Of a DNA stretch of 64,000 bases, positions 55,372 to 64,000 are shown in pieces. The notes beneath the pieces are model-generated. The model was given only the letters and a program-made list of their open reading frames with translations, searched no databases and was not told the DNA's origin. The stretch spans positions 40,949-104,948 of the forward strand of contig DATKCZ010000027.1 in NCBI GenBank assembly GCA_035512955.1. The letters are read 5' to 3'. Source of the stretch: Acidimicrobiia bacterium (lineage in GTDB: Bacteria > Actinomycetota > Acidimicrobiia > Spongiisociales > ZC4RG35). A program made the position numbers and the translations under genes. Positions within the stretch are counted from its first letter, which is position 1, and every line of letters begins with the position of its first letter.

Positions 55372-57078
55372 CTACTCCATCCCGTCCAAGTTGCCGCTGC
55401 GAAGATACCGCGCCAGTAGCTCGATGTCGGCCTGGTCGAGGATCAACCCGAAAGCGGGCATCCGACCCGATCCGAAACCGTTGAGCCCATATGGCGTCTG
55501 CGCCTCGGAGCCGTTGATGAGAAAGTCGACGAGCAGATCGGTCTCGGCTTCGTCCTGGGGGGGCTCACCGAACTGCACCACCGGGCGCCCGTCCCAGAGC
55601 GCCGGCCCGAACCCACCGGCGCCGGCCTCCTGGGTATAGGGGGTGCCGGCGCTGAAACCGGCGGTATGACATCGGGCACAGTTGGCGTTGAAGAGCCCCA
55701 CCGCCCGAAGGGCCTCGTCCTCGCTGGCTCCCATCGCCTCGGCGACACCGGGGATGTCGATCTCCCATGCGGCTTGTTCCTGGGCCATCAGCAAGAACTC
55801 CAGACCGGCCTCTTGCTGTGGGCGAATCCTCGATACGTTCTCCACCGTGACGCCGACGTTGATGGCCGCGGTCTCCAGGCCGCCAACCATGTTCGAGGCG
55901 GTTCTCATGTCGGGCTCTCCGGGCACCGACTGGGGATTGGCCGGATCGAGGTCGATCCGGGTCAGCGTGCGCGGGACGGTGGCGCCGCTGGCCGTGGTGA
56001 ACAGCGCAGAGATCGTGCCCTCGGCCCCGTCGGAGATCCCATCGCCATCGCTGTCGGGGTTCTCCGCAGTGATCTCATCGCCCTGCAACGCCGCAGTGAC
56101 GTCGGCCAGGGTGACCTGGAGAATCGGGTCGTCCTCGGACGCCTCGGTGAGCTGGGCGAGGGCATCGTCCAACAGCTCGGCGTCGGCTGTTTGAGGGTCG
56201 AGAGTCAATGCATCGACCACCCGGAAGTGATCGACCGCCGCGGCGGAGATGGCGGAAAGCTCGACTTCTGCGGCGTCGGACAACCCGTCCGCGTCGGTGT
56301 CTATCCCCTCCACCGCGTTGGCCAGCAACTCGGAGGCCCGCTCTGCCAGCGGCTCGATGACGACGAGGTCGGCGGCTGCCTGATCGATCTCGGCAACCAC
56401 CTGACGCTGGCTCACTATCGCCGCCTCCACCGTGGCGTCGGCGTTGGCGAGACGACTGAGCTGTTCGGCGGTGGCGGCCACGGTCTCGTCGACGGCCTGC
56501 TGTTGGGGGACCTGGATGGTCGCTAGGTAGTTGACGACATCACGGACCTGGTTCTCGTTCATTGGGCCGCCGCCATCGAGACCCCACGCCGGCATCGGGG
56601 TGTTGCCCCGGCCGTAGGTGACCCAGAAGTTGACCTCGTCCTCGTCGTAGCGAAAGAGAACATCGTCCAACGAAGGTGCGGTCCAGGACACGGTGACACC
56701 TGACCGCTTCTCCACGAAGGAGGCGACCCCGCCCGAGCCGAGGGGGCCGTGACAGTCGAAACAACCGAACTCGTCGACGAGGTGGAGGCCGCGTTCGATC
56801 GATGCTGTGGAGAACTCCTCGACAAAGCCGTCCTGGCGGTTCGACTCGCTGAGGAAGTAGAGAGGAAGGGAGATCGCCAGGAAGGCGGAGAAGGCTATCG
56901 CCGCCTTCTGGCCGCCCTCGAGACGTCTCGTCTCGAGTTGCTGGTCGTCGATTCCGGGCTTGAGGTTGGGGGAGACCTCCTCTGCACCACCCCGGTTCCT
57001 CAGCGCTGAGACCAACAGGAGGCCGAGCCACACGATCCCGGCCACCACTGCCAGGACCGTGATCACATCTGCGGTCAT
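55372..57078 (-). CDS. Membrane-anchored diheme cytochrome c with a large inter-heme insert
   Basis: Two N-terminal TM helices; CFDCH...MPAW and CARCH...MPAF; two DxDxDG[LI]SD repeats in the insert. Confidence 0.88.
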   Translation of the reverse strand: MTADVITVLAVVAGIVWLGLLLVSALRNRGGAEEVSPNLKPGIDDQQLETRRLEGGQKAAIAFSAFLAISLPLYFLSESNRQDGFVEEFSTASIERGLHLVDEFGCFDCHGPLGSGGVASFVEKRSGVTVSWTAPSLDDVLFRYDEDEVNFWVTYGRGNTPMPAWGLDGGGPMNENQVRDVVNYLATIQVPQQQAVDETVAATAEQLSRLANADATVEAAIVSQRQVVAEIDQAAADLVVIEPLAERASELLANAVEGIDTDADGLSDAAEVELSAISAAAVDHFRVVDALTLDPQTADAELLDDALAQLTEASEDDPILQVTLADVTAALQGDEITAENPDSDGDGISDGAEGTISALFTTASGATVPRTLTRIDLDPANPQSVPGEPDMRTASNMVGGLETAAINVGVTVENVSRIRPQQEAGLEFLLMAQEQAAWEIDIPGVAEAMGASEDEALRAVGLFNANCARCHTAGFSAGTPYTQEAGAGGFGPALWDGRPVVQFGEPPQDEAETDLLVDFLINGSEAQTPYGLNGFGSGRMPAFGLILDQADIELLARYLRSGNLDGME

Positions 57079-57081
57079 GCC

Positions 57082-57969
57082 CTAGGCCTCTTCATCCGCG
57101 GCGATGGCGCCGATGCAGCTCGGGCCCTGCGGATAGGGCACGCTCGGTGTGGCGGCGCGAGGGGTCTCGATGATCGATCCGGTGCGCACGATGAACCGAT
57201 CGCCGTCGCGCACCTCGACCTCGAAGCGATCGAGGTTCCTCGGGGCGGGCCCGGCGAAGTACTCGCCGACCGAGTTGTACTTCGACCCGTGACACGGGCA
57301 CTCGAATCCGATCGAGGTGGCGCACCAGGGAACGCGACAGCCGAGATGCACGCACCGCTGGAACAGGGCCATCAGCCCAGCCGCCTCGACGTTCCTGCCC
57401 TCGAACTGCTCGGAGAGAGTGTCGGGGGCGGGGACGATGTAGGCCCTGGCCTCGGGGACGAACACCGGGACCACCGAGCCGTCCGCCGTAACCGTCTGCG
57501 CGGTGATCGCCTCCACCGCGCCGGCGTCGACATCGGAGCCAAAGCCCCCAGTGAGCTTGGGCCAGAAGAACGCCAACGAGTAGAGCCCCATCAAGCCGAG
57601 GAACGAGCCGAAGGTGGCGGTGATTGCGCGATTGAAGAACTGGCGACGGCTGACCCCCGACTCCTCCACGGAGACCTCGACCACACGCTGGGTCTCGACG
57701 AGCTCGACACCGGCAGCCACCGGCTCGGGCTCGACCTCCTCGACGACGACTTCCTCGTCCAGGGCCGGGGGCTCATCCTCAGGGATCTCGATCGGCTCCA
57801 CCCGGACACCGGCCATCGATCGGTCTGCGCGCCGGGTCTCCTCGGAGACCCCGGCGGTGGGGTCGGGACGTTCGGCTCGGGTGCGGCGAAAGGCGATGGT
57901 GAAGGCACCGAGAGCACCGAAGATGGCGAAGAAACCGACGGCGACGAGGACCCAGTTGGTGAATGTCAT
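57082..57969 (-). CDS. Rieske [2Fe-2S] subunit of the Rieske/cytochrome b complex
   Basis: CVHLGC and CPCHGSKY boxes; N-terminal TM, acidic linker, then SRRQFF twin-arginine TM. ATG overlaps the upstream stop. Confidence 0.93.
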   Translation of the reverse strand: MTFTNWVLVAVGFFAIFGALGAFTIAFRRTRAERPDPTAGVSEETRRADRSMAGVRVEPIEIPEDEPPALDEEVVVEEVEPEPVAAGVELVETQRVVEVSVEESGVSRRQFFNRAITATFGSFLGLMGLYSLAFFWPKLTGGFGSDVDAGAVEAITAQTVTADGSVVPVFVPEARAYIVPAPDTLSEQFEGRNVEAAGLMALFQRCVHLGCRVPWCATSIGFECPCHGSKYNSVGEYFAGPAPRNLDRFEVEVRDGDRFIVRTGSIIETPRAATPSVPYPQGPSCIGAIAADEEA

Positions 57970-59054
57970 TCGAAATGCACCCAGTCCCTCAGGTCGTCGA
58001 AGAAGACCCCGTCCCGCCAAGGGTAGGAGAAGTTGAACCCCTGGCCCCGGAACAACACGCCGAACATCGTCAACGTGGCCGATCCGGCCAGGAACAGCGA
58101 GAAGAGCATGATGGCGAACTTCCGGTCGGACGGTCTCGTCGACGGGTTCTTGTCGACGTAGGGGATCATCATGAACCCGATCAGCCCGATGAAGAGCGGG
58201 ACCATGACACCGGCGATCTGGGGGTCGAAGTAGCTGAGCAGCTCCTGAAGCCCGAGGAAGTACCACGGGGCCTTCGAGGGGTTGGGAGTGCTGTTGAAGT
58301 TGGCGGGGTCCAACAAGGGTGAGTGGATGACCACCGACATGACCACCAGCACACCGGTTATGAGGAGCAACGCCCCGAACTCCATGAGCATCAAATGCGG
58401 CCAGGTGTTGACCTTGTCGGTGGGCTCGGGTCTGACGTTCTGGATCGCCCTGGCCTTGACCACCGTCAGCAGCCGTTGGGTCCGGACGCCCTCGGGGAGA
58501 CCCGCAGGCGGCACCGAAGGGCGGGGGCTCACCGTCGAGGCGACCTTGCCGTTGCCTGCGCCATCCGCACTCGGTGCCTCGACCGCCTCCACTTCGACTG
58601 CTGGGGCCAGCTCGTCCGTATCGGCCTCTTCGGTCACCGTCCCTTTGGCTTCCTCAGGCTCCGCTTCCTCAGGCTCCGCTTCCTCAGGCTCCTCTTCCTC
58701 GGGCTCCCCGTCCTTTGTCACCGCCACCGCCCCGGCTTCGGCCAGATTTGGCGCCGCTGACTCCGCGGGGGGCGGGATCTCGGCTTCGTGGGGGTCGACC
58801 GGGGCAACGTCTTGTTCCATGTTCGTCTCGATCTCCGGGGTCCCGGCATCGTCATCCTCGGGAACCTCGTCGACCGGGCTCTCGACGTCTTCGATGGTCT
58901 CGGTCACCGGGTCGGGCCCGGCGGCCGACTGGGGCACCTCGACCGGAGGGCCCTCCCCCTTCATCTCGGCCAGGACCTGGTCCACCGGCACACCAAGGGC
59001 CTTGGCCTTGGCTTCCGCCGATCTTCTCAGCAGGCTCTCTGGTATCTCAACCAA
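57966..59054 (-). CDS. Cytochrome b6 subunit IV (PetD-like) with a long acidic N-terminal extension
   Basis: TWPHL, PNPSKAPWYFLGLQELL (PEWY-equivalent), PYVDKNP. TTG 59054 preceded by GGAG. Confidence 0.88.
   Translation of the reverse strand: MVEIPESLLRRSAEAKAKALGVPVDQVLAEMKGEGPPVEVPQSAAGPDPVTETIEDVESPVDEVPEDDDAGTPEIETNMEQDVAPVDPHEAEIPPPAESAAPNLAEAGAVAVTKDGEPEEEEPEEAEPEEAEPEEAKGTVTEEADTDELAPAVEVEAVEAPSADGAGNGKVASTVSPRPSVPPAGLPEGVRTQRLLTVVKARAIQNVRPEPTDKVNTWPHLMLMEFGALLLITGVLVVMSVVIHSPLLDPANFNSTPNPSKAPWYFLGLQELLSYFDPQIAGVMVPLFIGLIGFMMIPYVDKNPSTRPSDRKFAIMLFSLFLAGSATLTMFGVLFRGQGFNFSYPWRDGVFFDDLRDWVHFE
58648..58707. repeat. 15-bp coding tandem repeat (EPEE[EA] x4) in the subunit IV linker
   Basis: GCTTCCTCAGGCTCC x3 exact, plus TCTTCCTCGGGCTCC. 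Confidence 0.8.
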
Positions 59055-59847: not shown

Positions 59848-60297
59848 CTACCAGCGCATTCCGTACGTATAGCCATTCTTGAAGTCGCGCTGCCCGGTGT
59901 CGAAATCCCAGGGGCGGCGATCGAGACCTAGCTCGGCGGCCTGTTCGGCCAGCGAGCCCTCGAACTTGCCGAGTGAGATCACATTGGTCGGACAGCGGTC
60001 GACACAGAGCGCACACCTGGTGCACTCGTCCTCGTCGACGATGAAGAAGCCGAAGTTCTGCTCGTCCTCGATCGGGTGGTCGACGTTGACCGCCTCATCG
60101 ATGGCCGTCAGCGAGAGGTAAAAGATGCACTTCCACGGGCAGATATCGACACAGCCCTCACAGAGGATGCACTCCGATTGGTCGATGTGGAGGAACTGCT
60201 TGGGACGGAGCTTGTCGGCGAAGTACTCACCGTCGACCAGGGCGAGCTGGTAGTCGTCTCTGATCGGGGGCGTCTCGTCGACTACACCTTTGGGCAT
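59848..60297 (-). CDS. 2x[4Fe-4S] ferredoxin-like protein
   Basis: CILCEGCVDICP and CTRCALCVDRCP; no signal peptide or TM. Confidence 0.9.
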   Translation of the reverse strand: MPKGVVDETPPIRDDYQLALVDGEYFADKLRPKQFLHIDQSECILCEGCVDICPWKCIFYLSLTAIDEAVNVDHPIEDEQNFGFFIVDEDECTRCALCVDRCPTNVISLGKFEGSLAEQAAELGLDRRPWDFDTGQRDFKNGYTYGMRW

Positions 60298-60298
60298 C

Positions 60299-60928
60299 TC
60301 AGTTACCCTTCACCAGCGGCCGGCCATAGGGCGACTTCTTCTCGACCGGAGCCGCGCTCGGCGGCCGTCCTTGCTTCATCTTCTGTATCTGGATCGCCAG
60401 GAAACCGGCGAAGCCCAACAGTCCCAGGCTATATCCCATCTGGATGGAGTCCTTGATCGCGGCATAGCTGATCGAGAGGTCGTTGCCCAGGACCAGCAGC
60501 GGCGGGACGGTCACCGCCACCCGCTGTGAAGACCAGTCGAGATCGGTCTGTGCGTAGTTGAGCCACTCCGAGGGGACCATGCCGAAGTAGAACACCAACG
60601 CGGTGAAGGTGATGAGGGCGGCCACGGTGGCCCGTGCCCAGGTCATCCTCTGGTTGAGGACCCAGAGGAACGTGGCGCCGAGGAAGGTCATGGTGGTGGC
60701 GCCCAGGACGATCAGGTAGCCGATCCCCTTCCACACCGTGCCCCGCGGCCACCAGTTGAGGAAGTCGACGACCACTGGCACCTCGACGCCGTCGACCACC
60801 TCGGTCTGGGGGATCGACGACCAGTGGATCCAGATCACGCCCAACACCAGCCCGACAAAGCCGAGAGCCAGCAGGCCGGTGCCGATCATCCGGCGGCGGC
60901 TGTCGCTGAGTTCTGCGAGGCGGTACAT
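60299..60928 (-). CDS. Uncharacterised multi-TM membrane protein, first gene of the operon
   Basis: Several hydrophobic helices; stop lies 1 nt before the ferredoxin ATG. Confidence 0.75.
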   Translation of the reverse strand: MYRLAELSDSRRRMIGTGLLALGFVGLVLGVIWIHWSSIPQTEVVDGVEVPVVVDFLNWWPRGTVWKGIGYLIVLGATTMTFLGATFLWVLNQRMTWARATVAALITFTALVFYFGMVPSEWLNYAQTDLDWSSQRVAVTVPPLLVLGNDLSISYAAIKDSIQMGYSLGLLGFAGFLAIQIQKMKQGRPPSAAPVEKKSPYGRPLVKGN

Positions 60929-61103
60929 CTTGGTTATGCGATCCCGGGACGCGTAGAAAGCGTTCGTTGGTGCGTTTTTACCACAGGTGGAGGTTGGTTC
61001 GGGAACCCGACTGCCACACGGCGACAGTCTCGGGTCGGGCTGCGGACTCGATCCACGAAGTCGTTATGCTCCCGCCGTCTCATCTCTCGCGCGAGGAAGT
61101 CGG

Positions 61104-62543
61104 TTGGCTGACACCCGAAATGCAGACATTCGAGCCCTGCTCGGCGGTGGTTCCACCGAGGACCGACTCGCCGCGATCCATTTCATGGTGGGAGCCCTCT
61201 TTCTCGTCATCGGTGGCGCCATCCAACTGTTGTCGCTGGTGGCGCTGCGCTTTGCCGATCTGCTCCCCATCTCGTACGGCCTTCTCGAGCCGGCGGCCAA
61301 CCTGACGCTGATGATCGGTTTCGCCGCGATCTCCCTAGTCGGCGGGGTTTATTACGTCGTCCCCCGTCTCACCGGGGCCCGTCTGCGCAACGCCACGCTC
61401 GGGGGGCTCGGGCTGGCGGGGATGGCGGGTTTGACGGGTCTCGGTGTCGTGGCCATCTTGACCGGCTTGGGGGACGGGGGCCAACCGCTGGGCCTGGCCT
61501 GGTGGCTCGACATCCCCCTCGCCCTCGTCCTCTTCATTCCCGCGATGATCACTCTCGACACCATCCGGCACCGCACCGAGCGGCGCAGCTTCGTCACGCT
61601 GTGGTTCGTCGTGGGCGGTGTGGTCTGGCTTCCTTTGCTCTACCTCGCCCACCTGGTCACCGAGCTCCCTTTTGCCTCACAGGTCGGAATCGCCTTCGCC
61701 GAGACGTTCTTCTCCGCCGGTTTCGTCACCATGTTCCTGGTCACGGTGGGGTCGGGGCTGGTCTATTACACGACGGTCAAGGAGATGGACCTCCCCCTGG
61801 CCAGCCGTCAGCTCGCCCTGGTCGGGTTCTGGTCGCTCGGGTTTGCCGCGGCCTGGTGGGGCGCCGCGCAATTGCTGTTCGGTCCCGGTCCCGACTGGGT
61901 GGCCGGGGTCGCCGCCGCCCTCGGTCTTGCCTTCCCGCTGGGCGCGCTGGCCAACGCGGCGAACGTGTCGATGACCCTCGAGGGCTCGTGGTCCCGGCTC
62001 GCCGAGCAACCCGGCGTTCTATCGGGTGTGATCGGGCTCTACCTGACGGTGGGTGTGGCGGCGGTCGCCGCCCTGGCAGGCTTCCGCTCGGTCGGTTCGG
62101 TGGCTGCCACCACTCCGCTGTGGGAGGCCATCGAATACGTGCTCCTGGCCGGCGTCGCCACGCTGCTCGTCTCCGGTGTCGCCTTCGCCGCCCTGCCCAG
62201 GATCGTGGGGAGAGAGCTCGAGACCAAAGCCAAGGCACGACGCTTCCATCGGTTGACGGTGACGGGGGCGGTAGGTGTCCTCGTCACGCTGGGTGGGGCC
62301 GGAGTCCTGGCGGGCTACTCCTGGATCGGCGGCTCGAACAGCGGTGCCTACATCGACGCCGGCGAGGGCTGGGCCGCCGGAATGGGCGCCTCATATGACA
62401 CTTTGGTGCTCGCCGCGGTGGTCTTCGGCATCGTCCTCTTCGCCGGTCTGGGCGGCTATGCGTCGATCGTCTTCGGCACCGTGGCCAGGGGCAGGGCAGC
62501 CTCCCAGGAGGTCCTCGTTGCCAAGGTGGCCCGGGATGAGTGA
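61104..62543 (+). CDS. CcoN-like (cbb3 oxidase subunit I fold) protein lacking heme/Cu His ligands
   Basis: About 12 TM helices colinear with CcoN (SYGLLEP, YYVVPR, WWLDI, FVTLWF, PDW, MTLEGSWSRL, LPRIVGR). TTG 61104 lies 6 nt after GAGGA. Confidence 0.85.
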   Translation: MADTRNADIRALLGGGSTEDRLAAIHFMVGALFLVIGGAIQLLSLVALRFADLLPISYGLLEPAANLTLMIGFAAISLVGGVYYVVPRLTGARLRNATLGGLGLAGMAGLTGLGVVAILTGLGDGGQPLGLAWWLDIPLALVLFIPAMITLDTIRHRTERRSFVTLWFVVGGVVWLPLLYLAHLVTELPFASQVGIAFAETFFSAGFVTMFLVTVGSGLVYYTTVKEMDLPLASRQLALVGFWSLGFAAAWWGAAQLLFGPGPDWVAGVAAALGLAFPLGALANAANVSMTLEGSWSRLAEQPGVLSGVIGLYLTVGVAAVAALAGFRSVGSVAATTPLWEAIEYVLLAGVATLLVSGVAFAALPRIVGRELETKAKARRFHRLTVTGAVGVLVTLGGAGVLAGYSWIGGSNSGAYIDAGEGWAAGMGASYDTLVLAAVVFGIVLFAGLGGYASIVFGTVARGRAASQEVLVAKVARDE

Positions 62544-63306
62544 CCAGCTCGCCGCGGCCGCGGCGGCGATGGGCCTGCCCGAGGCGTTGGTGCAGCGATC
62601 GGCCGAGGCGCGCTCTGAAGAGACCGGCGCCAGCGTCGAGGACATCCTCGCCCAATGGGTGGCCGGTGAGACGGCCCCGGTGGCGGCGGCGCCCCAAGCA
62701 CCACCAGTCGAAGAGGCAGCCGAGCCTGACGAGGCCCTCCCCGAGGAGGCCACCACCACACCGGAGATCGTCATCGAGGTGCCCGATGGGGCCGAGACTC
62801 CGACCCCTGCGCCACAGCCCATCGCCGTCGGCCCCTACAAGCCACCTGTCCTGGTCGGCCACGAGGACAGCCCGATGACCCTGCTCGCCGGAGTCGTCGG
62901 GCTCTTCATCATCGTGATGATGGTGGGTCTGGTGGGCCCGTCGATCCCGGTCGACGAACCCGGTGCTCGCAGCTCCGAGATCGCGTTCTCGGAGGCTGCC
63001 CTGGCAGGCCGGGAGGTCTATGCCGTGTCGGGATGCGCGGCATGTCACACTCAGATGGTTCGCCCCGTCGTCGCCGACGTAGGTCTCGGCGCGGTGACAC
63101 TCAACGACACCAACCAGATCCTGGGCACGAGGCGGTTCGGGCCCGATCTCTCCGATGTCGGCTCGCGGGTCGGCTCCGATCAGATGCAAGCAATCGTCGC
63201 CGGTCAGGGCACCCATCCCGCCCACAATCTCAGCCCCACCGACCTCGAGAGCCTCGTCGCCTATCTGAGCGAGTCCCGGACCTCGTCAGGACCGGCGCCG
63301 TCGTGA
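62536..63306 (+). CDS. CcoO-like monoheme cytochrome c with an N-terminal module and acidic linker
   Basis: GREVYAVSGCAACHTQMVRP and LGTRRFGPDLSDVG are CcoO hallmarks; ATG overlaps the end of the upstream gene. Confidence 0.85.
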   Translation: MSDQLAAAAAAMGLPEALVQRSAEARSEETGASVEDILAQWVAGETAPVAAAPQAPPVEEAAEPDEALPEEATTTPEIVIEVPDGAETPTPAPQPIAVGPYKPPVLVGHEDSPMTLLAGVVGLFIIVMMVGLVGPSIPVDEPGARSSEIAFSEAALAGREVYAVSGCAACHTQMVRPVVADVGLGAVTLNDTNQILGTRRFGPDLSDVGSRVGSDQMQAIVAGQGTHPAHNLSPTDLESLVAYLSESRTSSGPAPS

Positions 63307-64000
63307 GTCTCAGCGCAGCAGCTCAGGCCCTGGGGCTCCCCGAAGCCCTGGTGCAACGATCCGCCGAGGCTCGGGCCGCCGAGAGCGGTGCCAGCGTCGA
63401 TGAGGTCCTCGCTGCCTGGGCGGGCGGTGGGGCCGTCGAGCCGGCCCCGGCGCCCGAGCCCGAGCCCGCCGGCGCCGAGGAGACGCCCGAAGCGGCCGAG
63501 ACGCCCGAGGAGACCGCCGCAGAACCGGTGGTCGAGGCGGCACAGCCCGCGGCCGCCAGCGCCGCCGCACCGGCTCCCACCCCTACAAGAGCCCCGGTCC
63601 CCGCGGAGGTCGGTGCAGCCGAAGCCGCTCATCTCCCCGAGGTGATCACCGTGCCGACGGCGGGGATCAAGGAGCGGACCAACTTCGTGATCCCCCGATG
63701 GCTGACGGCAGTCATGCTGGTCGCCCCTTTGTTCGCCCTCTTCGCCCTGGGGGGCTCGGCCACCGGGGAATGTGGGGAAGGCACCGAGCTGGCCATCGAC
63801 GTCATCTCCGGGGAGATCATCAACTGCGACGGCTCGGAGTTCACCGGTGGCGGGGCGGGTGGCGGAGGGACCGATTTCATCACCCTGGGCGCCGACCTCT
63901 ATTCGGGTTCGGTCACCCCGGCGGCCACCTGTGCCGGTTGTCATGGGGCCGGGGGGCAGGGCAGCGCCAGCTTCCCCTCGCTGGCCGACGTGGTCACCAC
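63303..64000 (+). CDS. Membrane-anchored cytochrome c (CcoP-position), runs off the window
   Basis: Hand translation from GTG 63303 (GTGA overlap): VSLSAAAQALGLPEALVQRSAEAR..., TM WLTAVMLVAPLFALFALGG, heme motif CAGCH near 63930. Confidence 0.82.
   Translation, partial: MSLSAAAQALGLPEALVQRSAEARAAESGASVDEVLAAWAGGGAVEPAPAPEPEPAGAEETPEAAETPEETAAEPVVEAAQPAAASAAAPAPTPTRAPVPAEVGAAEAAHLPEVITVPTAGIKERTNFVIPRWLTAVMLVAPLFALFALGGSATGECGEGTELAIDVISGEIINCDGSEFTGGGAGGGGTDFITLGADLYSGSVTPAATCAGCHGAGGQGSASFPSLADVVT

Follow-up and report, generated by a model that had tools for sequence, protein, structure and literature searches.

What becomes of a haem-copper oxidase (HCO) subunit I once every residue that holds its cofactors has gone, and what work could keep such a protein in a genome? 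The question is raised by a gene near the 3′ end of a 64,000-nucleotide (nt) stretch of an Acidimicrobiia genome (contig DATKCZ010000027.1, positions 40,949 to 104,948 of the forward strand; "the window" below means this whole stretch). The gene heads a three-gene operon, or trio, and encodes a homolog of CcoN, subunit I of the cbb3-type oxidases. An earlier note, made from the letters alone, had read the protein as an intact CcoN homolog without any of its six haem- and copper-binding histidines, kept as a scaffold, an ion conduit or a partner of a catalytic CcoN encoded elsewhere. On evidence that is genomic and from structure prediction throughout, the first of these fates is the best supported: we propose, with moderate confidence, that the CcoN-like protein is a non-catalytic membrane scaffold that presents one-electron carriers between a b6-type complex III and a caa3-type oxidase.

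Fold and ligand columns of the CcoN-like protein

61104..62543, + strand: CcoN-like protein (cbb3 subunit I fold), 479 amino acids (aa); assigned by open reading frame (ORF), profile hidden Markov model, alignment, AlphaFold and Foldseek

The uninterrupted ORF with multiple transmembrane helices described earlier is real. It starts with a TTG at 61104, with GAGGAAG 5 nt upstream, and stops at 62541-62543; the frame is already open from 60987, and the TTG was kept as the start despite this because most of the 120 listed homologs share the length of 479 aa and 80 genome-derived orthologs align from query residue 1-7. Colinearity with cbb3 CcoN, formerly judged by eye, is borne out by formal profile alignment, the protein matching Pfam COX1 over profile positions 2-408 of 436 with 54.1 bits (cut-off 34.8) and NCBIfam TIGR00780 (ccoN) over model positions 20-468 of 474 with 94.4 bits, below the equivalog cut-off of 583.15. 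A phmmer search of the Protein Data Bank places cbb3 CcoN chains on top (6xkw_n, E 4.7e-16; 3mk7_A, 2.5e-13). An AlphaFold model computed with 63 sequences (predicted local distance difference test, pLDDT, 87.4; predicted template-modelling score, pTM, 0.89) retains the 12-helix CcoN fold, and the chains nearest to it in Foldseek are the CcoN subunits 9g83_t, 3mk7, 8smr_E and 6xkw_n, the P. stutzeri structure among them, at template-modelling scores (TM-scores) of 0.84-0.88 and 19-22% identity. The second-best match is NorB (4xyd_A, 3o0r_B; TM-score 0.74-0.77).

Within this retained fold the ligands are lost. The columns were read in a 101-sequence MAFFT alignment that includes canonical CcoN representatives, one of which (P0176) served as the canonical reference and reads H,H,Y,H,H,H,H where the CcoN-like protein reads A,A,A,A,Q,I,Y. 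In P. stutzeri numbering, the haem b ligands H60 and H347 are replaced by A and Y, the CuB ligands H207, H257 and H258 by A, A and Q (the first reads S in a pairwise alignment), the haem b3 ligand H345 by I, and the cross-linking Y251 of helix VII, the loss of which had also been recognized, by A. A HMMER alignment with R. capsulatus CcoN sets fgrlrplHt against ygllepaAn, GpHHL against GaaQL, tigHvH against eaIeY and keyaeln against gqplgla. It thereby recovers three of the pairings first drawn by eye (GRLRPLHTN with GLLEPAANL, YIWAGPHHL with AAWWGAAQL, WTIGHVH with LWEAIEYV) and the replacement of the Ca-binding KEYAELE loop by GQPLGLA; the Ca-site Glu is thus also gone. A fourth pairing, WWYGHNAV with TFFSAGFV, survives in part: the GHNAV region is gapped and the exact pairing is not reproduced, yet the CcoN-like protein has no His near it and the MAFFT column reads A.

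The whole protein contains only four His (positions 26, 156, 183 and 382), and a search of the six ligand columns for His found none among 81 near-family and 17 order-level sequences. In the near family the two low-spin haem b columns hold A/S/T/V and Y/F/L/I/V, and orthologs have V/A/I/M at the column of the cross-linking Tyr. As all these sequences share the losses, neither chance nor sequencing error accounts for them. The alignments support the conclusion that the known mode of binding haem b, haem b3 and CuB is closed to the protein; with all ligands lost, it would therefore reduce neither O2 nor NO by the known mechanism, a claim that the predicted structure, the orthologs and the ratio of nonsynonymous to synonymous substitution rates (dN/dS, below) uphold along with the alignment. 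Judged by its sequence, it is a CcoN homolog but not a functional member of the C family, because the ligand set, the Tyr and an equivalog-level score are all wanting.

Could the emptied cavity have been furnished anew? The near family conserves H26 in the first transmembrane helix (81/81), Q256 (81/81), E344 (80/81) and Y345 (75/81), plus N66. All five residues are buried, and Q256, E344 and Y345 stand at former CuB or haem ligand columns; at the H26 column canonical CcoN has F/W/Y, and H26 recurs in many of the fused forms described below. These polar residues may leave room for a lineage-specific site, and one alternative holds that they bind a haem or metal as non-canonical ligands and give the protein a new redox or catalytic role. 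We regard this as improbable. None of the five is conserved across the wider His-less clade, so they do not define the family, and no alternative family-wide ligands or new metal-type motif appear in the conserved columns of that clade. Even close relatives have F, L, I or V in place of Y345, and an Actinomarinales-like ortholog, from a genus with genomes of about 1 Mb, has a single His in 469 aa and other residues at these columns. The same buried residues could be invoked for the ion-conduit option, in which the emptied oxidase channels are reused for ion or proton conduction or transport; HCO subunit I does contain proton pathways. This appears less probable still: no intramembrane position keeps a charged or polar residue throughout the family, a protein without redox centres has no energy source for transport, and a shell always fused to or paired with redox carriers suggests a different function.

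A selected family without ligand histidines

A search of 5.8 billion proteins with the CcoN-like query returned more than 400 matches, the best 120 of which are 64-99% identical and mostly 479 aa long; the named ones among these 120 are called 'cbb3-type cytochrome c oxidase subunit I [Acidimicrobiia bacterium]'. We examined 97 orthologs, 17 from genomes of 12 families in the same order and 80 from further genomes, these being uncultured metagenome-assembled genomes (MAGs). The frame is uninterrupted in the window gene and in all 97, all 97 share the His losses, and dN/dS (Nei-Gojobori, NG86) is 0.04-0.14 for the 25 closest ortholog pairs, that is, well below 1. The family is under purifying selection. 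A recent pseudogene or neutrally evolving remnant, which the earlier note had weighed, is ruled out for practical purposes by these ratios, the open frames and the conserved synteny; the depth of the clade and the overlap coupling of the genes (below) speak against it as well.

A family member is present in 87 of 201 sampled genomes of the class (~43%). Among the carriers is one genus whose genomes, at ~1.0 Mb and 36% guanine-plus-cytosine (GC) content, are consistent, we infer, with the streamlined marine Actinomarinales; this genus keeps the whole ten-gene cluster to which the gene belongs. Retention in genomes so reduced argues that the function is needed. Several public MAG records bear the names 'uncultured Acidobacteriota', 'Boseongicola' or 'Gammaproteobacteria' although their cluster is of the Acidimicrobiia type, at 58-62% identity and with full synteny (loci L040, L052, L057, L070 and others, plus L036 and L083); mislabelling or mis-binning is the likely cause.

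The family also has depth. A HMMER search of 1.8 billion cluster representatives gave 582 matches; 101 sequences among the best 150 are full-length, and 66 of these 101 lack all six His. In a maximum-likelihood tree 54 of the 66 form one clade (SH-aLRT, the Shimodaira-Hasegawa-like approximate likelihood-ratio test, 99), apart from canonical six-His CcoN and divided into an unfused branch of ~470 aa, which holds the window protein, and a branch of ~650 aa. Further total or partial His losses arise independently within the canonical half of the tree. The representative search also contained other CcoN lineages with partial ligand loss (P0250, P0260, P0193, P0166, P0177), P0250 retaining the three haem-ligand His and lacking all three CuB His, and a separate His-less lineage (P0153) with a FixO gene alongside, near nuo genes and multihaem cytochromes (L103).

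What, then, is being selected? What the His-less clade conserves throughout are G/P/W/R/Y positions common to canonical CcoN, and the CcoN-like protein is the fastest-evolving of the ten cluster proteins, with 33% identity at order level against 81% for cytochrome b6. Such rapid change is consistent with constraint on the fold and interfaces only. It also fits a structural relic arising by constructive neutral evolution: the CcoO-like cytochrome or a b6 supercomplex would depend on the shell for folding or assembly, the cytochromes c would do the work, and the shell itself would neither conduct electrons nor present anything, so that a single transmembrane anchor could in principle replace it. 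That conserved residues are only of the fold type accords with this, as does the general route of canonical cbb3 assembly, which proceeds via a CcoN-CcoO core. We consider a relic unlikely, though by no means negligible: a 479-aa, 12-helix protein has been kept in streamlined ~1-Mb genomes, where dispensable anchors normally go, and the dN/dS values denote strong constraint. In practice the relic and the carrier-presenting scaffold that we prefer overlap, the sole difference being whether docking matters.

Redox partners, complex III and the site of oxygen reduction

The remaining features of the cluster are as follows.

62536..63306, + strand: CcoO-like monohaem cytochrome c, 256 aa; FixO 40.3 bits (cut-off 29.6), CAACH
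63303..64000, + strand, continuing to ~64304 outside the window: third trio gene, 'cytc3' (CcoP-like position), 333 aa; CAGCH, GGMPSH
60929..61103, no strand: intergenic region of 175 bp separating the trio from the divergent Rieske/b6 operon, presumably a promoter region common to both
60299..60928, − strand: membrane protein, 209 aa, first gene of the operon, no family above cut-off
59848..60297, − strand: 2x[4Fe-4S] ferredoxin-type subunit, 149 aa
59065..59838, − strand: cytochrome b6-type protein (N-terminal half of cytochrome b), 257 aa
57966..59054, − strand: subunit IV-like protein (C-terminal half of cytochrome b); TTG at 59054 after AAGGAG; N-terminal IPESLLRRSAEAK motif
57082..57969, − strand: Rieske [2Fe-2S] protein; ATG at 57969
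55372..57078, − strand: dihaem cytochrome c, 568 aa
55010..55369, − strand: small membrane protein, 119 aa, last of the seven genes

The CcoN-like gene does head an operon with a CcoO-like cytochrome, as had been claimed. An overlap of 8 nt (ATGAGTGA) joins the CcoN-like stop to the CcoO-like start, cytc3 overlaps the CcoO-like stop by GTGA, and the operon ends after cytc3; given these overlapping starts and stops, the trio is translationally coupled. The CcoO-like protein consists of a cytoplasmic N-terminal LPEALVQRSAEAR module, an Ala/Pro/Glu linker, one transmembrane helix and a haem c domain, in which CxxCH is kept wherever the domain was recovered. The layout of cytc3 is similar: the same N-terminal module, a linker, one transmembrane helix and a monohaem c domain. 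It is not a dihaem CcoP, having one CxxCH only and scoring 16.6 bits against the TIGR00782 cut-off of 180. The haem ligand type of the CcoO-like protein correlates with its fusion state: the axial Met of CcoO has become His in 81 of 82 aligned unfused CcoO-like sequences (GTHPAHN in the window, 63150-63200), and the CcoN-CcoO fusions keep Met-Pro.

The N-terminal module, '[IVL]PE.L[LV].RSAEAR...G.SV[DE]..L', is common to the CcoO-like protein, cytc3 and the b6 subunit IV (62536-62680, 63303-63430 and, on the minus strand, 58950-59054 in the window), and was read also in loci L105, L106, L109, L111 and L112. Its copies are taken to be cytoplasmic because all precede the transmembrane helix, and in the ~1-Mb genomes it is nearly identical between the two cytochromes. 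A single protein, for instance the ferredoxin subunit, may be what all these modules bind. On subunit IV of trio-less Acidimicrobiia the motif's first half is likewise present, sometimes duplicated; an association found with the strict expression 'PE.L..RSAE.R', according to which subunit IV carried the motif only where the trio exists, was withdrawn, as trio-less genomes carry it too.

The pairing of the shell with a haem-c or copper carrier is obligatory, and the carrier itself varies. The CcoO haem-c domain is joined to the His-less CcoN, by way of a linker and one transmembrane helix, in ~80 protein clusters. C551, C554 and H555 are invariant in these fusions and M625 and P626 nearly so, the CcoN part having only fold-type invariants; AlphaFold predicts one of them as a confident single rigid body (pLDDT 91.2 and pTM 0.93 over 647 aa). 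Another ~10 clusters have, in place of the haem-c domain, a type-1 copper cupredoxin domain fused to the His-less CcoN (YYFFCDVHPTMKG; Cupredoxin_1 36 bits, cut-off 27). As interchangeable one-electron carriers sit on the same shell, the shell is argued to be the anchor.

Linkage to complex III is fixed. The same ten genes stand in the same arrangement, the trio divergent from the seven-gene operon, in all 97 relatives' loci with enough flank, and the b6-type complex is the sole Rieske/cytochrome b set of the source genome. Linkage to complex IV is seen, at the level of gene order, in one subclade. Four contigs of the cupredoxin-fused type, with proteins 56-100% identical (L108, contig G442:C13; L113; L114; L115), carry resABC, pseudo-CcoN::cupredoxin, ctaC, ctaD, ctaE, ctaF, ctaG and a FixO-like cytochrome c, ctaC bearing a cytochrome c domain and the whole set being divergent from the seven-gene b6/ferredoxin operon. 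The two contigs that reach far enough, L113 and L115, continue with a further cytochrome c, then an FAD protein and nuoA-D. In this subclade the caa3 genes thus separate the dead CcoN from the cytochromes that usually partner it. Two new elements, the cupredoxin-fused variant and the order pseudo-CcoN/ctaCDEFG/CcoO-like, tie the module to caa3 as judged from gene order. Carrier exchange combined with linkage to complexes III and IV is what a docking platform would predict, and the scaffold is best supported over conduit or partner by the CcoO-like pairing, the haem-c and cupredoxin fusions, and the linkage to Rieske/b6 and, in the one subclade, to ctaCDEFG.

Where is O2 reduced? A-type CtaD (~510-555 bits) is encoded in 195 of the 201 class genomes, the ~1-Mb ones included, and in nearly all genomes of the same genus; CtaC of a near-complete relative (G003) has a fused cytochrome c domain, and the oxidase is therefore of the caa3 type. 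The source assembly, 85% complete, contains no ctaB, ctaC, ctaD or ctaF, no cytochrome bd and no recognizable terminal oxidase. The missing cta genes are probably a gap in the MAG, since nearly all same-genus genomes have caa3.

Alternatively, the CcoN-like protein might act as a regulatory or heterodimer partner of a His-intact CcoN encoded elsewhere, the third fate named at the outset. Looking beyond the 64 kb, as the earlier note had suggested, revealed no His-intact CcoN in the source genome, where the COX1 matches are the CcoN-like protein and one weak, fragment-like one of 27 bits. Across 40 relatives, the 17 COX1 matches below 170 bits that were extracted and aligned are all His-less, and the others, at ~190 bits and above, score as A-type or other canonical HCOs would be expected to. 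FixH/CcoH (PF05751) was found in 0 of 26 genomes, with a positive Caulobacter control; ccoQ, ccoG, ccoI and ccoS were outside that search. The heterodimer is thereby largely refuted, and we attach hardly any weight to it. The weak match is a 396-aa membrane protein (genome G000, contig C37, locus L002 239-1429, + strand) that covers N-terminal profile positions 5-103 and contains 'THVHAGTLGW'; similar weak COX1 matches of ~400 aa occur in at least six relatives, and the protein may represent another HCO-derived family.

How might the parts work together? The shell would be a redox-dead descendant of a C-family CcoN that keeps the 12-helix fold and holds no haem b, haem b3 or CuB. Together with the haem c of CcoO type and a further cytochrome c anchored in the membrane, it would make up a 'pseudo-cbb3' module, hold its one-electron carrier domains at the outer membrane face and dock them to the Rieske/cytochrome b6/ferredoxin complex III. 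Electrons from complex III would then be passed towards the separate caa3-type oxidase, at which O2 would be reduced. That the parts assemble into one supercomplex, and in which direction electrons pass through it, is what we infer from gene content and order.

Several observations weigh against this proposal. The ferredoxin subunit of the seven-gene operon is encoded in 178 of the 201 class genomes, and the operon was read without the trio in three loci (L109, L111, L112): across the class, the Rieske/b6 operon with its 2x[4Fe-4S] ferredoxin subunit generally serves as complex III, with or without the trio. As the operon is class-wide and the trio is found in 87/201 only, the trio is accessory rather than part of core complex III, and on this genomic pattern complex III would not need it in order to reach its acceptor. 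Adjacency of cta genes and module is confined to the cupredoxin subclade, and in the source MAG as assembled the module stands without any cta genes, so that its co-occurrence with caa3 in this very genome is only presumptive. The conserved buried polar residues of the near family are not explained by a pure scaffold. Finally, c haems with bis-His ligation are usually of low potential, and the His-ligated CcoO-like haem fits awkwardly with a high-potential relay from Rieske protein and cytochrome c to caa3.

A bolder reading would turn some of these difficulties into function, although we think it a long shot. Here the emptied fold would be a working part of an unrecognized Acidimicrobiia supercomplex rather than an inert anchor. 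The supercomplex may comprise the ferredoxin subunit, b6, subunit IV, Rieske protein, dihaem cytochrome c, the pseudo-cbb3 module and caa3; the old haem/CuB cavity may have been rebuilt as a polar site (H26, N66, Q256, E344 and Y345 in the window's lineage) that binds a non-canonical cofactor or gates protons or the conformational coupling of complexes III and IV; and the bis-His CcoO-like haem may serve a low-potential branch, for example via the cytoplasmic ferredoxin subunit, instead of the classical high-potential chain.

Significance and comparison with known systems

HCO subunit I is among the most conserved catalytic scaffolds in biology, and in the literature consulted its six His count as essentially invariant. 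That a large, ancient and selected family keeps the fold without any ligand means that the HCO shell has found another use, one beyond catalysis. The finding also has a practical side. NCBI and JGI name the family 'cbb3-type cytochrome c oxidase subunit I', and finding cbb3 is commonly taken to signal respiration of the high-affinity, microaerobic kind, a trait that is therefore probably over-called when metabolism is reconstructed from Acidimicrobiia MAGs. One acid-mine-drainage MAG study reports 'caa3- and cbb3-type oxidases', and its cbb3 calls may rest on the His-less family. The same risk applies to the ~1-Mb, 36%-GC genomes taken as marine Actinomarinales. The gene orders that join the b6 operon, pseudo-CcoN, ctaCDEFG and the CcoO-like gene offer a testable hypothesis of how, in a class that has no soluble cytochrome c, a complex III of b6 type delivers its electrons to caa3. 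As to precedent, the earlier note knew of no complex built on a fully ligand-less CcoN, and our full-text literature search, which left subscription-only papers outside its reach, agrees in finding no description of such a CcoN.

The closest known relative is CcoN of the cbb3 oxidases (P. stutzeri 3MK7/5DJQ, R. capsulatus 6XKW, P. aeruginosa 8SMR). It shares with the CcoN-like protein the 12-helix fold at the TM-scores given above and the motifs YGRL.P, YY..PR, FWS and P.W; the operon order ccoN-ccoO-(ccoP-like) and the FixO-family monohaem partner are likewise cbb3-like, and canonical cbb3 also forms supercomplexes with bc1 (6XKW, 8SMR, 9G83). In contrast to cbb3, the CcoN-like protein lacks the six His, Tyr251 and the Ca-site Glu and reaches 94 bits where the cut-off is 583; the CcoO-like axial Met is His in unfused forms, and the module has a fixed place beside a Rieske/cytochrome b operon of b6 type, in an actinobacterial class whose respiration runs on caa3.

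The NO reductases are more distant. NorB of cNOR and qNOR is the weaker structural match noted above, and NorC, like the CcoO-like protein, is a monohaem cytochrome c partner; NorB, however, keeps six His and FeB-ligating Glu residues, whereas the same columns of the CcoN-like protein are without His and the Glu ligands are absent. Metagenomic HCO branches with altered active sites, gNOR and other divergent families, have been reported (Murali et al., bioRxiv 10.1101/2021.10.15.464467), but the CcoN-like family, with all six His replaced, is not described there.

For the proposed role, the nearest counterpart may be the actinobacterial bcc-aa3 supercomplex (for example C. glutamicum 7QHM), in which electrons pass from complex III to aa3 via membrane-bound c haems and without soluble cytochrome c. 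The likeness would be one of functional analogy: bcc-aa3 uses the dihaem QcrC and has no HCO-fold pseudo-subunit, whereas the Acidimicrobiia combine a b6-type complex III that has a ferredoxin subunit with carriers placed on a dead CcoN.

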